Assembly: GCA_902597375.1 (NCBI GenBank)
Contig: CACJXH010000003.1
Location: 1 to 45,397 of the forward strand
Direction: 5' to 3'
Origin: an uncultured Candidatus Actinomarina sp.
GTDB lineage: Bacteria; Actinomycetota; Acidimicrobiia; Actinomarinales; Actinomarinaceae
DNA length: 45,397 nt
The notes under the pieces were generated by a model. The model saw nothing but the letters and a program-made list of their open reading frames with translations, did not search any database and had not been told where the DNA came from. The position numbers and the translations under genes were made by a program. Shown here in pieces: positions 38,560 to 43,543 of this stretch. Within the stretch, counting starts at the first letter, position 1. The number at the start of each line of letters is the position of its first letter.

Positions 38560-39408
38560 TTAAGCTTGTAGCCAGTCTTCAGGATTATCATCAACAAAAA
38601 AATCTGAAACTAAAGTTGCGTCTGGATCGACTGCATATTGATCAAAATCTGTAATACCTTCTTCTTCAAGAACATCTTGGTCTAAAAAGAAGTTTCCGGT
38701 GCATGATGATGAATCTCTCTTTAAGACGGCGTATGCAGCATCAGCATATATAGAAGGTTTTCTTGATCCTTTTACAAGTTCTGCCCCAATTACATTCCTT
38801 ACAGCAGCTGTATCTAATGAAGTTCTTGGCCATAGACAATTTGATGCGATTCCAAATTTACCAAGTTCTTCTGCTAATCCATGAGCTATCAATGTCATAC
38901 CGTATTTTGCAGTTGTGTAAGCTAATGTCATTCCAAACCATTTTCTATCAAAGTTCAAAGGCGGGGAAAGTGTAAGGATGTGTGGGTTTTTTCCATTTTT
39001 TAAATGAGGAATTGTTTTTTGACTTAACAAGAACGTCCCTCTTACATTAATTCCATGCATTAAGTCATATCTTTTCATTGGAGTATTTACTGTATCAGTA
39101 AGATGAATGGCACTTGCATTATTTACACAAATATCTATTCCACCAAACTTTTCAACAGCTTCATTGACGGCGCTTTCTACTTGTTCTTCAAATCTTATAT
39201 CACAAACGATAGGCAAAGCTTTCCCACCAACTGACTCAATCTCTTCTGCGGCTGTATAAATTGTTCCTGGAAGCGTAGGATGAGGCTCAGTTGTTTTTGC
39301 GAGTATAGCAATGTTTGCTCCATCTTTACCAAGTGCTTTTGCTATTTCAAGGCCAACACCTCTTGACCCTCCACTCATAATTATTGTTTTATCTTTAAAA
39401 AATGACAT
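38560..39408 (-). CDS. Short-chain dehydrogenase (HSDL2/AtuG-like)
   Basis: SGGSRGVG, NNASAI, YTTAK, LWPRT, CTGNFF. Confidence 0.88.
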   Translation of the reverse strand: MSFFKDKTIIMSGGSRGVGLEIAKALGKDGANIAILAKTTEPHPTLPGTIYTAAEEIESVGGKALPIVCDIRFEEQVESAVNEAVEKFGGIDICVNNASAIHLTDTVNTPMKRYDLMHGINVRGTFLLSQKTIPHLKNGKNPHILTLSPPLNFDRKWFGMTLAYTTAKYGMTLIAHGLAEELGKFGIASNCLWPRTSLDTAAVRNVIGAELVKGSRKPSIYADAAYAVLKRDSSSCTGNFFLDQDVLEEEGITDFDQYAVDPDATLVSDFFVDDNPEDWLQA

Positions 39409-39411
39409 AAT

Positions 39412-40983
39412 CTAATCTATCAAATTATAAGCTGGTAATGTTAAAAATTCTTCAAAATCTTCATCAAAAATAAGATCGCTAAATAATGTTACTGCTTCAC
39501 TTAGCATTTCTGAATTTTCTTGAATTTCTTTTATTTTATTTACTTCATCTTTGATTAGCTCGGTTACAAAACTTTTATCAATACTTTTGTTTACGTCTGT
39601 TTTTGCTTCATTCTTAATCCACTGCCATAATTGAGATCTAGAGATTTCAGCTGTTGCAGCATCCTCCATTAGATTAAATAATGCAGCGGCTCCCTGTCCC
39701 AAAAGCCATGATTGAACATACAAGATACCAACACGTATATTAGTTCTAATACCTTCTTCGGTAATTGTTGCTCCAGGGATATTAAAATCTTGAAGCATGT
39801 CCTCAGATATAACTGGTTCATTGGGTATAAAATCAATTTGGTTTTCCTTAGCGCCTAAGGAATCTTTGAATACATCTTTACATACTTGTACTAAATCTGG
39901 ATGTGCTACCCAAGAGCCATCAAAACCCATAGTTACTTCACGTTCTTTATCTTTTTTCACTTGATCTATAGCCTTTTCTGTAATTTCAGGATCTCTTCTA
40001 TTAGGTATAAACGCAGACATACCCCCTATTGCATGAGCACCTCGTTTGTGACAGCTCTGTACAAGTAATTCAGTGTATGCTTTCATAAATGGAACAGTCA
40101 TGGTAATTTGTGATCTATCTGGAAAATTTATTTCTGGTAAGTCCCTATGTTTTTTGATTGCGCTAAAAATATAATCCCATCGGCCTGCATTCATTCCTAG
40201 AGAATGCTCTTTTAATGAGTAAAGAATCTCCTCAATTTCAAAAGATGCTGATATTGTCTCTAGGAGTACAGTTGCCCGCAAAGTTCCTCTAGGCAAACTC
40301 AGTTCATCTTCAGAAAAAGAAAAGATATCATCCCAAAGTTGTGACTCTGAACTATTTTCAAGCTTTGGTATGTAAAAATATGTACCTATCCCATTTTCTA
40401 ATCTCAATTTTGCATTGTGAAATGTATATAAAGCAAAATCTAAAAATGCTCCTGACACAGGGGCGCCATTTAGTAATACATTTTTGTCATCAAGGTGTAG
40501 GCCTCTTGGCCTTACAAAGAGACTTGTGTTACTTTCTGGGTTTAAAGAGTATGTTTTCTCATTTTTTGGATCCACAAATTCAAGGTCTCTAAGATTAGCA
40601 TCAAGTAAATTGACTTGGCCATCCATAATATTTTTCCATGTAGGGGAAGTTGAATCCTCAAAATCTGCCATGAATACATCAGCTCCAGAATTCAATGCAT
40701 TTATAATCATTTTTCTATCCACTGGTCCAGTAATTTCTACATTTCTATTTGCCACATCTGCTGGGGGTGCTGTAACCTTCCAATTGTCTTCTCTTATTTT
40801 TTTGTCTTTTGGGAAAGAAAGTCTTTTACCAGATGAAATATCATTTTGCATTTTTACCCTATTTTTTAGAATTTCTTGACGGGTATTCTCAAAAGTTGAG
40901 CAGACTTTCTCTAGAAAACTTATAGCCTCATCAGACAATATATTTTGATATTGACTTTTTTTTTCAGAATTAATATCGATCAT
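39412..40983 (-). CDS. aceB: Malate synthase A
   Basis: VEITGPVDRKM, MADFED, RPRGLH, NAGRWDYIFS, LMEDAATAEISR. Confidence 0.95.
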   Translation of the reverse strand: MIDINSEKKSQYQNILSDEAISFLEKVCSTFENTRQEILKNRVKMQNDISSGKRLSFPKDKKIREDNWKVTAPPADVANRNVEITGPVDRKMIINALNSGADVFMADFEDSTSPTWKNIMDGQVNLLDANLRDLEFVDPKNEKTYSLNPESNTSLFVRPRGLHLDDKNVLLNGAPVSGAFLDFALYTFHNAKLRLENGIGTYFYIPKLENSSESQLWDDIFSFSEDELSLPRGTLRATVLLETISASFEIEEILYSLKEHSLGMNAGRWDYIFSAIKKHRDLPEINFPDRSQITMTVPFMKAYTELLVQSCHKRGAHAIGGMSAFIPNRRDPEITEKAIDQVKKDKEREVTMGFDGSWVAHPDLVQVCKDVFKDSLGAKENQIDFIPNEPVISEDMLQDFNIPGATITEEGIRTNIRVGILYVQSWLLGQGAAALFNLMEDAATAEISRSQLWQWIKNEAKTDVNKSIDKSFVTELIKDEVNKIKEIQENSEMLSEAVTLFSDLIFDEDFEEFLTLPAYNLID

Positions 40984-42269
40984 TAAAACTGTTCTTCTTC
41001 AGTGGACCCCTCTAGTGCTAATGTTGAGGCATCTCCTCCAGAAATAATTGTTGATACTTTATCAAAATAACCAGCTCCAACTTCTCTCTGGTGTTTTACT
41101 GACGTAAACCCTTTTTCTTCAAGTGAAAATTCTTTCTCCTGAAGCTCTACATAAGATGACATATTTCCACCTTTGTAATTTGAAGCTAGTTCAAACATTG
41201 ATGTGTTTAAGGCATGAAACCCTGCCAATGTGATGAACTGAAATTTGTAACCAAATGAATTTAATTGCTCTTGAAATGTTTCTATTTCTTTTTCATTTAA
41301 AGAGGCTTTCCAATTAAAAGATGGAGAACAATTATAAGCCATCAGCTTGTTTGGATACTTCTCATGAATTGCATCTGCAAAATCCTTTGCAAAACCGAGG
41401 TCAGGTTTTCCAGTTTCACACCAAACCAAATCAGAATAAGGAGCATAAGAAAGTGCTCTTGAGATAGCTGCATCTGGACCATTGTTTACTCTATAAAATC
41501 CTTCTGCTGTTCTTTCTCCAGTAACAAACTCTGCATCAATTTCATCGATGTCACTTGTTAGTAAATTTGCACCTAAAGCATCAGTTCTTGCGATGATTAC
41601 AAGTGGAACACCAAGAGTATCGGCTGCTAGTCTAGCAGATGTTAATGTTCGGATATGCTGACTAGTAGGGACTAAAACTTTTCCACCCATATGTCCACAT
41701 TTTTTTTCTGCGGCAAGCTGATCTTCAAAATGAACCGCAGCAACACCAGCTTCAATGAATTTTTTAGTAAGTTCAAATACATTTAATGCTCCACCAAAAC
41801 CTGCTTCTCCATCTGCAACAATTGGAACAATATAATTTGTAGAATCGATACCGTCAGTTTTATCAACTTGCTCAGCTCTTAATAAAGCATTATTTATTTT
41901 TTTGGCAAGGTTAGGTGCACTATTGCTTGGATATAATGATTGATCAGGATAAGTTGTATCTCCAAGGTTTGAGTCAGCTGCAACCTGCCAACCACTTAAA
42001 TAAATTGCTTCAAGCCCAGCCTTTGCCATCTGTACTGCTTGATTGCCTGATAATGCGCCTAAAGCTGAAACCCACTCATCTTTACGATTGAGTAAGTTCC
42101 ATAAATTTGTTGAACCATTTTGAGACAGGGAATACTCAATTTGAATGGAATTTCTTAACGAAACAACATCTTCAGCAGAAAAGTTACGCTTTGTATCTTT
42201 CCACCTGGGGTTTGTTTCCCATTCTTCACTCAGTAAAGAGGGATCCAAATGATTTTTATTCTCCATCAT
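40983..42269 (-). CDS. aceA: Isocitrate lyase
   Basis: [32 protein letters not shown]; start ATG 42269 or 42266 preferred over 42290. Confidence 0.95.
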
Positions 42270-42480
42270 AAAAACTTTCGTAAATGTCATCTTTTGTTTG
42301 TTTTAATTTTTTTGCAACATTTCGATAAGTTTGTACAATTCCTATTTTTTTCAAAAAGTTGTAAGGAGCCCTAAAAATTTTATCTTCAAAAGAAAGAAAA
42401 TTATTCACAAATTTTGAAGAATTCTTTTCATCGTCTTTTTCGTAATATTCTTCATCGTAAAATGTATTCTCGTCAATCAT
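42256..42480 (-). CDS. Hypothetical 74-aa protein, first gene of the aceA-aceB operon
   Basis: GAAAGGA SD; stop overlaps the aceA start. Confidence 0.6.
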
Positions 42481-42492
42481 TTTTTTCCTTTC

Positions 42493-42518
42493 AAAAAAAA
42501 TCCGGGCTATTTGCCCGG
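42493..42518 (-). terminator. Attenuator terminator CCGGGC-AAATA-GCCCGG-A-U8
   Basis: All-GC 6-bp stem plus 8 U, ending 12 nt before the next start codon. Confidence 0.8.
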
Positions 42519-42545
42519 TCCATCAAACGCATAAGACAGGGCTGA

Positions 42546-42590
42546 TTATGTATAAATCACCACTACTTTTGACGCGTTTAAATTTTGCAT
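42546..42590 (-). CDS. Putative leader peptide MQNLNASKVVVIYT (Val/Ile control codons)
   Basis: ATG...GTA GTG GTG ATT TAT ACA TAA; extended -10 TGCTATATT ends 6 nt upstream (leaderless geometry); followed by antiterminator and terminator. Confidence 0.7.
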   Translation of the reverse strand: MQNLNASKVVVIYT

Positions 42591-42640
42591 GAAAACAATA
42601 TAGCAGTCATTCGAAAATAATGTATTCGATTTTTGTTAAA

Positions 42641-43543
42641 TTAATTCTGACTCGCAGCCACACTAGCAATTATTACAGTTAATGTCATAACCCCTGCTGC
42701 AGCGATAAGCACTTCGTTTCTAGTAATTTTAATCTTTGGCGCAGAACTCATCACTGAAGCAAATAGTAAAATTGCCGCAGATATTATAAGAGCAAATAAA
42801 GGTGCATAATCGTGAAAATTAATAAATACTTGAGAAATTAAAACTGATATTACACCACCAAATAAAATTGCCCCCAACGGAATTACAATAGATCCAGTCA
42901 CTCTATTTCTAATTACATTTGCCTCTTTCAGCTCATATATGTCCAAACCTTTAGGTATACCAAGGACGATCACGATTGAAGCAATTATTGCTTGAGAGAC
43001 AGTTGAAAACAATACAATCCTCCAAAAAGATCCAATTACTGGAATTAGATAGGTCGTAACGTCGTCTTCAAGTATTGCTTCAATCGTTACACCAATATCT
43101 GAAGTTATTACAAATCCAATTGAAGAACCAAATATTAAACCAAGGCCAACTCCAAGAAATAACGACTCCCTATCATTTGTAAGAATTCCAAAACCTTCAT
43201 AATTTTTTTCAAGAATTTTTTTTAAGTTTATTGAACTTATTACAGCAAAAAAAGTTGTAGTTAAAGCAATATTCAAAATGTACTGAGTAGGCGTATAGTT
43301 TGCAATTAAATTTAGAGTTTCAGACTCAAGAATTAGACCTTCATAAAGATATGAACTTACAATAAACGCCTGAATAAACCCAGCAACGATTCCAAAAACT
43401 GTTCCGTACTGTAAAGCTCTAAAAATCTTAACTGAGAGTTGAGCTGGTGGGGGAATATTTTCATCAACATAACTAAGAACTGTTTCTACTGGAGCCTCTT
43501 CCACAACTGTTTCTACTGGAGCCTCTTCTACAACCGTTTCTAC
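42641..43543 (-). CDS. C-terminal part of a multi-TM hypothetical protein, 5' end lost at the junction near 43545
   Basis: Begins inside a VEEAPVETV repeat linker; no SD or convincing start; about 6 TM segments. Confidence 0.65.
   Translation of the reverse strand, partial: VETVVEEAPVETVVEEAPVETVLSYVDENIPPPAQLSVKIFRALQYGTVFGIVAGFIQAFIVSSYLYEGLILESETLNLIANYTPTQYILNIALTTTFFAVISSINLKKILEKNYEGFGILTNDRESLFLGVGLGLIFGSSIGFVITSDIGVTIEAILEDDVTTYLIPVIGSFWRIVLFSTVSQAIIASIVIVLGIPKGLDIYELKEANVIRNRVTGSIVIPLGAILFGGVISVLISQVFINFHDYAPLFALIISAAILLFASVMSSAPKIKITRNEVLIAAAGVMTLTVIIASVAASQN

Follow-up and report, generated by a model that had tools for sequence, protein, structure and literature searches.

The window analyzed here, a 45,397-nucleotide (nt) stretch of DNA from an uncultured Candidatus Actinomarina sp., contains on its minus strand a short leader in front of orf74, aceA and aceB, the last two encoding the isocitrate lyase and malate synthase of the glyoxylate shunt. 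Judging from the sequence and from folding models, this leader is probably a ribosome-mediated leader-peptide transcription attenuator that reads the supply of valyl-tRNA and gates orf74-aceA-aceB(-SDR). The evidence comes from a Val-containing upstream open reading frame (uORF) that is kept in every distinct leader, from its spacing relative to mutually exclusive RNA pairings, and from leaders of the same design that precede four amino-acid operons in the same genome and carry the cognate codons.

Structure of the aceA leader

The elements of the leader, from 5' to 3' on the transcribed strand, are as follows.

42621-42640, minus strand: upstream motif TTTAACAAAAATCGAATACA, recognized by eye in 25 distinct upstream sequences
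42597-42605, minus strand: extended -10 element TGCTATATT, read from the sequence
42546-42590, minus strand: putative leaderless uORF MQNLNASKVVVIYT, with its stop codon at 42548-42546
42558-42566, minus strand: candidate regulatory Val codons GTA GTG GTG, of which GTG GTG is unchanging in all leaders
42523-42581, minus strand: 1:2 hairpin (anti-antiterminator), from minimum-free-energy (MFE) folds and from RNAalifold applied per group
42513-42542, minus strand: 2:3 antiterminator, GCCCUGUC (42542-42535) with GACCGGGC (42520-42513), 7/8 paired
42493-42518, minus strand: 3:4 intrinsic terminator CCGGGC-AAATA-GCCCGG-A-T8, from a terminator search

The extended -10 element is separated by the 6-nt spacer GTTTTC from the ATG at 42590, whose A is the predicted transcription start. 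The uORF then reads ATG CAA AAT TTA AAC GCG TCA AAA GTA GTG GTG ATT TAT ACA TAA. In the 1:2 hairpin, segment 1 spans the Val codons, while the apical loop contains the stop codon or is close to it. The terminator consists of a stem-loop at 42518-42502 with six G-C pairs, followed by an A and by T8 at 42500-42493. Immediately beyond it are a ribosome-binding site (RBS), AAGGA, at 42490-42486 and the ATG of orf74 at 42480. The G+C content of the window is 33%, and the assembly from which it derives is 0.73 Mb in length and 61% complete.

An earlier note, made from the letters of this DNA alone, had proposed a Val/Ile attenuator here, and its description of the parts was accurate. The extended -10 element, the uORF start at 42590 and the terminator with its U8 tract are all present where it placed them. 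The two pairings that it assigned to the 1:2 hairpin, GGUGAUU (42561-42555) with AAUCAGCC (42547-42540) and UAAACGCG (42580-42573) with UGCGUUUG (42531-42524), both fall within the MFE fold, and its antiterminator pairing was recovered at seven of eight positions.

Conservation of the uORF and its valine codons

Leaders from 54 redundant loci were reduced to 26 distinct leaders encoding 18 distinct peptides. An ATG and an open frame of 13, 14 or 15 codons are present in all 26, and the promoter pattern TGnTAnnnT is present in 25. Although the spacer varies freely in sequence, 24 leaders have 6 nt between the -10 element and the ATG; of the other two, one has 5 nt and one 7 nt. A fixed distance despite a varying spacer is as expected if transcription starts on the A of the ATG.

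The pair GTG GTG is unchanging in 26/26 leaders and is accompanied by one to three further Val codons, giving three Val codons in 16 leaders, four in three and five in seven. Val thus takes up 3-5 of the 13-15 codons of each uORF, compared with 6.35% of codons genome-wide. Outside the pair, Val codons vary synonymously: codon 9 of the 14-codon group is GTA, GTG or GTT, and codon 6 of the 15-codon group is GTT, GTC or GTA. Together with the fixed -10-to-ATG distance and the preserved frame and stop codon, these variants suggest that the uORF is translated. An alternative frame beginning MLCKWW, which runs across some 15-codon leaders, was considered and rejected; it has no conserved ATG, and stop codons close it in the leader of the window.

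The position of the uORF relative to the downstream pairings is equally regular. In all 26 leaders the antiterminator GCC is 4-6 nt 3' of the stop codon and 18-22 nt 3' of the last Val codon. By these distances, and in the ribosome-masked folds described below, segment 2 would be covered by a ribosome at the stop codon but accessible when the ribosome is at the Val codons.

The Ile codon that directly follows the Val run in the window is confined to the 14-codon group, and its position is not conserved elsewhere, so that Val alone is likely to be the regulatory residue. The earlier proposal of a combined Val/Ile leader is therefore upheld for Val and not for Ile. That proposal had also named the outcome that would have spoken for an ordinary terminator of the upstream gene, namely conservation of the terminator without the uORF or its Val codons; instead, the uORF, its frame, the -10 distance and GTG GTG are kept in every distinct leader.

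Predicted alternative folds

The 101-nt leader has an MFE of -31.0 kcal/mol, with a structure made up of the 1:2 hairpin and the terminator. Shuffled sequences gave -19.83 +/- 3.08 kcal/mol (z = -3.63), and none of 200 was as good. The same combination of hairpin and terminator is found in the free-RNA folds of 21/21 leaders, and the terminator stem is unchanging in all of them. The register in which GCCC pairs with the G-rich Val segment differs by 3 nt between two groups of leaders, and for this reason the groups were folded separately and each leader was also folded singly.

The third pairing appears when the transcript is treated as nascent, that is, as RNA extending to the terminator loop but not to the 3' terminator arm, with the footprint of a ribosome masked. 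Placing the ribosome at the second GTG lets the 2:3 antiterminator form in 21/21 leaders, with energies of -8.5 to -13.9 kcal/mol (-11.9 in the window). When it is placed at the stop codon, the antiterminator energy is only 0 to -3.8 kcal/mol. The 1:2, 2:3 and 3:4 pairings are thus mutually exclusive as predicted folds, with the antiterminator confined to the nascent-transcript folds.

Tests on the single sequence are weaker, and the weight of the evidence comes from conservation. For example, the number of terminators in a 7.4-kb region, three found against 3.7 expected, is not significant by itself.

Sister attenuators in the same genome

Across the assembly, the pattern of a -10 box followed 4-9 nt later by an ATG, a short ORF and a terminator matched the aceA leader and four others, all of them leaderless by this criterion and all with terminators. 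The four lie outside the window, on other contigs (C) of its assembly.

C5:14019, plus strand: sister leader
C21:430, plus strand: sister leader
C14:1435-1528, plus strand: sister leader
C8:161-255, minus strand: sister leader

Each carries codons for an amino acid related to the operon behind it. The leader MKKSVNLISLLVLVLM (L/V/I) precedes the acetolactate synthase operon ilvB-ilvN-ilvC-leuA-leuB, MINFIIII (IIII) precedes citramalate synthase, MKINTYFYFRAHI (YFYF) precedes DAHP synthase and aro genes, and MKNVINWHWWTTT (WxWW) precedes a TrpB-like enzyme (trpB2). The last target was read in relatives because the contig ends at this point in the assembly of the window. The first genes behind the sister leaders were confirmed by NCBIfam. 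With cognate codons in all four, the lineage demonstrably uses this type of module. The Trp leader fronts a stand-alone trpB2 in a lineage that, according to a preprint, is without Trp biosynthesis.

The sister leaders resemble the aceA leader closely. They have the same -10-to-ATG spacing, a length of ~95 nt, a hairpin around the stop codon, a (G)UGCCC strand and a terminator of the form CCGGGC-N-GCCCGG-U7-9. They differ in having W, Y/F, I or L/V/I codons in place of V and in that their targets make the amino acid that would be sensed. Strict terminators, defined as a perfect stem of at least five pairs with at least four G/C and a tract of T6 or more, number only 11 in the 0.73-Mb assembly, and that of the aceA leader is among them. 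The four of these 11 with the strongest upstream antiterminator pairing belong to the aceA, trpB2, ilvB and aro leaders.

A covariance model of the aceA leader matches the Trp and aro leaders from end to end, with scores of 34-54 bits. When six Trp and eight aceA leaders were aligned over their full length, the W residues at codons 7, 9 and 10 coincided with the V residues of the 15-codon aceA peptides; in the 14-codon leader of the window the Val codons are at 9-11. The stop-codon hairpin, a GUGCC strand and the terminator are common to both. The case that these positions form the functional core of the leader, and that Val is being read, is made most strongly by this correspondence of Trp and Val codons. 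Judging from the alignment, the Trp and Val leaders seem to be paralogous modules that came to differ in specificity through a codon swap or a 1-nt change of frame. A block, CATATGTAGTGCC, is also common to the Trp leaders (L111, L119-L125) and the Val leaders.

Distribution of the leader and its gene cassette

The leader is present at 10/10 orthologous aceA loci among relatives and at 21/21 named Actinomarina or Actinomarinales loci with upstream DNA (22 loci were taken, one of them truncated). Searched against 64 genomes from the genus, the covariance model of the leader has exactly one match of at least 92.6 bits in each of 33, all other matches scoring 53.7 bits or less. The malate synthase gene aceB occurs in 34 of the 64, and leader and aceB occur together in 32. 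Contig ends account for the three discordant genomes: in one the leader is on a 2286-nt contig, in another aceB runs from base 2 of its contig, and in the third the contig ends inside aceA. The variable presence of the cassette agrees with a report of malate synthase in 20/84 complete Actinomarina genomes (10.64898/2026.04.03.716425).

The module always precedes the small ORF, aceA and aceB, whichever gene is upstream. At least five different upstream contexts were found, genes on the opposite strand among them. In the group to which the window belongs the preceding gene encodes a membrane protein of 354-377 aa; elsewhere it encodes a protein of 348, 198 or 332 aa or is transcribed in the opposite direction. 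Since the module accompanies aceA-aceB behind such different genes, it is not just a terminator of the upstream gene. By this gene order, the leader, the small ORF, aceA and aceB are a cassette with its own predicted promoter and attenuator.

The slot that the cassette fills in the window's group is held elsewhere by a paralogous isocitrate lyase (ICL) of 420-430 aa that is 50-56% identical. At 17/17 such loci (L014-L030) the paralogous ICL sits directly after the same membrane-protein gene, with no intergenic region, leader or aceB. The same SDR gene follows it in 16 of the 17, and the remaining locus (L020) breaks off too early to show it. In the species group of the window, no second ICL was found. 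Among other Acidimicrobiia, a crude regular-expression scan found a Val-rich short uORF with a U-tract before aceA at 0/56 loci, the only hit being a trivial MAVVAQ; 58 loci had been taken, and two were dropped for having less than 350 nt of upstream DNA.

In the window itself the upstream membrane-protein gene (42641-43504, minus strand) encodes 287 aa from a GTG start, compared with 354-377 aa (MDEKLVEQIS...) in close relatives. In this assembly the gene seems disrupted or shifted in its 5' part.

Proposed mechanism and alternative explanations

If the leader is an attenuator, transcription would begin on the A of the ATG at 42590 and produce a leaderless 14-codon uORF, onto which a 70S ribosome would load at the 5' end. 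When Val-tRNA is ample, the ribosome would reach the stop codon and cover the GCCC of segment 2, 4-6 nt downstream. With segment 2 covered, the CCGGGC/GCCCGG-U8 terminator would form and the transcript would end at ~98 nt. A ribosome stalled on GUG GUG would leave GCCC free 18-22 nt downstream, where it could pair with the emerging 5' arm of the terminator and allow read-through. Without a ribosome, the 1:2 hairpin would sequester GCCC, and termination would be expected in this case too.

A protein regulator could also be involved, since a conserved motif lies upstream of the promoter. The counterpart of this motif in the other groups, noted by eye in the upstream regions, is TTTCACAA-N3-4-CACA, and the motif may be a -35 region, a transcription-factor site or both. 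More generally, the motif follows the pattern TTT(C/A)ACAA-N3-7-(C/T)ACA, located ~30-47 nt 5' of the start, with equivalents at loci L007-L050. An inverted TTGTGAAA lies farther 5' of it in some loci.

Several observations weigh against the attenuator. Because the GUGGUG sequence is also paired, with GCCC, in the 1:2 hairpin, its invariance is partly structural, and structure and coding constrain it jointly. Of 2000 mononucleotide shuffles of segment 2, 98 matched the antiterminator energy of the window, which makes this a marginal control. Compensatory changes were found in only 2/25 predicted pairs in the group of the window and 0/20 in the other group by RNAalifold applied to each, and RNAalifold on a mixed 21-sequence MAFFT alignment recovered the terminator alone. 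Of the two results expected from aligning related leaders, conservation of the uORF Val run is thus borne out, and covariation in the pairings is weak. Likewise, masking the ribosome yields the proposed switch in nascent folds but not in full-length ones, where the MFE retains the terminator in 21/21 leaders even with a stalled ribosome. Because the terminator is still the thermodynamic optimum, antitermination must be kinetic. A similar ilvB leader in Streptomyces coelicolor is reported to be unresponsive to mutation of its regulatory codons (PMC1262725). Finally, searches with Pfam models in five genomes that are 61-90% complete did not find malic enzyme, phosphoenolpyruvate (PEP) carboxykinase of the GTP or ATP type, or methylmalonyl-CoA mutase. 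Without malic enzyme or PEP carboxykinase, the shunt probably cannot make pyruvate for Val.

Three other explanations of the leader can be considered. The leader might respond to translation in a general way, as a sensor of elongation or starvation in which ribosomes slow on two rare, wobble-read GUG codons. GTG is indeed the rarest Val codon, accounting for 6.7% of Val codons in long ORFs genome-wide but 73/95 of those in the leaders; the only tRNA-Val anticodons found are UAC and GAC (among 26 tRNAs in the window's assembly and 36 tRNA hits in genome G008); and the glyoxylate shunt is not specific to Val. The codon bias and the tRNA-Val anticodons also count in favor of the Val attenuator itself. 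The tRNA sets are both incomplete, however, the 36 of G008 lacking any tRNA-Glu. Moreover, Val codons other than GTG (GTT, GTA, GTC) flank the pair in 19/26 leaders, the other seven being all-GTG. A general sensor would also leave unexplained why each of the four sister attenuators carries cognate amino-acid codons and why the Val codons are placed exactly as the Trp codons of the paralogous leader, and it is improbable on these grounds.

Somewhat less probable still is a structured RNA switch, either a riboswitch or a protein-binding leader, in which a ligand or protein stabilizes or opens the 1:2 hairpin and the uORF is incidental. The hairpin and its GCCC strand are highly conserved, the promoter-upstream motif hints at regulation by a protein, and the ilvB and leuA leaders of S. 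coelicolor, which have candidate peptides, are described as not being classical attenuators (PMC1262725). The structure is a simple bulged hairpin, however, and no Rfam family reached its gathering score between 41800 and 43200; the top scores were KRAS_3UTR at 24.3 bits (E = 4.4) and ar9 at 21.7 bits (E = 0.8, gathering score 45), and Leu_leader, whose gathering score is 50, reached 15.6 bits. An incidental uORF is also at odds with an ATG fixed 5-7 nt from the -10 box, with a frame and stop position kept through variants of 13, 14 and 15 codons, and with sister elements bearing cognate codons. The least probable explanation is a constitutive terminator or insulator of the upstream gene next to an unrelated promoter, with aceA-aceB transcribed from elsewhere or by leakage. 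In its favor, the module in the window's group stands behind a co-directional membrane-protein gene, 120 nt past its stop codon, and the full-length MFE always includes the terminator. Against this, the module is found behind differing genes, including ones on the opposite strand, the RBS of the small ORF begins 2-10 nt past the U-tract with no other promoter-like space, and the paralogous ICL occupies the same slot without any intergenic region.

Downstream genes and metabolic context

The genes behind the leader are the following.

42256-42480, minus strand: orf74, an acidic small ORF of 74 aa with its own RBS AAGGA
40983-42290, minus strand: aceA, isocitrate lyase, equivalog NF011645, 703.7 bits (cut-off 562)
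39412-40983, minus strand: aceB, malate synthase A, equivalog TIGR01344, 671.1 bits (cut-off 594.5)
38560-39408, minus strand: SDR oxidoreductase, NF006133, the last gene on this strand

The identities given to the genes when the attenuator was first proposed are therefore correct, at equivalog level for isocitrate lyase and malate synthase A and by NF006133 for the SDR. Models for methylisocitrate lyase scored far below their own cut-offs on the aceA/aceB locus. No Pfam or NCBIfam family was found for orf74. The small ORF is 73-74 aa in the group of the window and 28-30 aa in the other groups. Its conserved C-terminus (K-TK-D-YES-YDGE) overlaps the start of aceA, which together with its strong RBS suggests translational coupling. 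The SDR gene is missing after aceB in the other contexts of the cassette, and by comparison of the loci it is an ancestral neighbor that lies outside the mobile cassette.

The five genomes searched were the window's assembly G000, with a locus at C11:22313-23578, and G008, G011, G013 and G018. All five have an aconitase-family ORF, 762 aa in length, citrate synthase of 351-360 aa occurs in 4/5, and PEP carboxylase occurs in 5/5. Aconitase and citrate synthase were called absent from Actinomarina in a 2026 preprint on the basis of KofamScan thresholds (10.64898/2026.04.03.716425). Their presence, contrary to that account, makes an ordinary glyoxylate shunt plausible.

The earlier note had suggested that the charging of Val/Ile tRNAs might stand in for a shortage of pyruvate or oxaloacetate. 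Two connections between Val and the shunt were dropped. Direct supply of pyruvate for Val by the shunt was abandoned because malic enzyme and PEP carboxykinase were not found in the five genomes, and catabolism of Val via succinyl-CoA, which would make the shunt redundant, was abandoned because methylmalonyl-CoA mutase was not found in them. Val is built purely from pyruvate, however, and poor charging of its tRNA may therefore report a shortage of PEP or pyruvate or a poor supply of amino acids. We infer that low Val charging would move anaplerosis from PEP carboxylase to the glyoxylate shunt fed by acetyl-CoA.

Significance

Leader-peptide attenuators are textbook regulators of amino acid biosynthesis. 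An attenuator wired to the glyoxylate shunt would make tRNA charging a general signal for central carbon flux. Taken further, and tentatively, one modular leaderless attenuator of ~95 nt may run much of the regulation in Actinomarina, with its specificity set by codons ~6-11. One copy, re-coded between Trp (UGG) and Val (GUG), would have come to ride on a mobile aceA-aceB cassette, and valyl-tRNA charging would act as a gauge of pyruvate/PEP or amino acids that switches anaplerosis to the glyoxylate shunt. If this is true, a second dominant streamlined marine heterotroph would have arrived independently at a ribosome-based counterpart of the SAR11 glycine riboswitch. It would also exemplify how a 1-Mb genome can be regulated by cis-acting RNA modules instead of proteins such as IclR and RamB.

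Actinomarina, which are uncultured, rank with the most abundant photoheterotrophs in surface ocean waters. With so abundant a host and a candidate switch, defined by sequence, on a pathway that conserves carbon, the ratio of leader to aceA coverage could serve as a metatranscriptomic read-out of nutritional state. In addition, the Trp and Val sister leaders would represent a natural experiment on the evolution of attenuator specificity through codon swaps.

Comparison with known systems

In a literature search confined to article texts, no account of an attenuator acting on aceA, aceB or the glyoxylate shunt came to light, nor of any attenuator from Actinomarinales. In enterobacteria, the attenuators of trp, his, leu and ilv operate through 1:2, 2:3 and 3:4 pairings, in which a ribosome at the stop codon blocks segment 2 and superattenuation occurs without translation. 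The aceA leader would share this logic, including the placement of the stop codon and superattenuation when translation is absent. It differs from them in its predicted leaderless uORF without a Shine-Dalgarno sequence, in lacking any sequence or structural match to them and in its non-biosynthetic target.

The class of mechanism proposed here is known, and its closest member is the ilvB attenuator of Corynebacterium glutamicum; it is the glyoxylate-shunt target that is unusual. In C. glutamicum, leader peptides have been described at trpE, leuA, ilvB and aroF (PMC3890552). The ilvB leader peptide, MTIIRLVVVTARRLP, is translated from a leaderless uORF, and replacement of its three Val residues by Ala is reported to abolish valine-dependent expression (PMC11857589). 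As described, the ilvBNC attenuator is, like the aceA leader, actinobacterial, with a leaderless uORF of 13-15 codons that contains a Val run (PMC11857589). Both also have an anti-antiterminator, antiterminator and terminator with a common GCC/GGC trinucleotide and an intrinsic terminator with a U-tract. The aceA leader is about half as long (~98 nt), and Val is its sole conserved regulatory residue. In contrast to ilvBNC, its target is isocitrate lyase and malate synthase rather than the biosynthesis of Val, and its response to Val is predicted.

In Escherichia coli, translation of aceB and aceA is reported to be under EttA-dependent control (PMC11282234). There, as proposed here, the outcome depends on the behavior of ribosomes on a short early coding stretch, and aceA translation is coupled to an upstream ORF. 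The E. coli system acts on translation through acidic residues inside AceB, whereas the aceA leader would act on transcription termination through Val codons. The acidic orf74 recalls this acidic-residue control of aceB/aceA, though the resemblance is no more than a lead.

The nearest functional analogue is the glycine riboswitch found in SAR11 upstream of the malate synthase gene glcB (PMC5069720). In both cases an amino acid signal would act through a cis-acting RNA leader on an enzyme of the glyoxylate cycle in an abundant, streamlined marine heterotroph. The lineages are unrelated, however, and the means differ: SAR11 is described as using a metabolite-binding aptamer for glycine, while Actinomarina would use the ribosome to read the charging of Val-tRNA.

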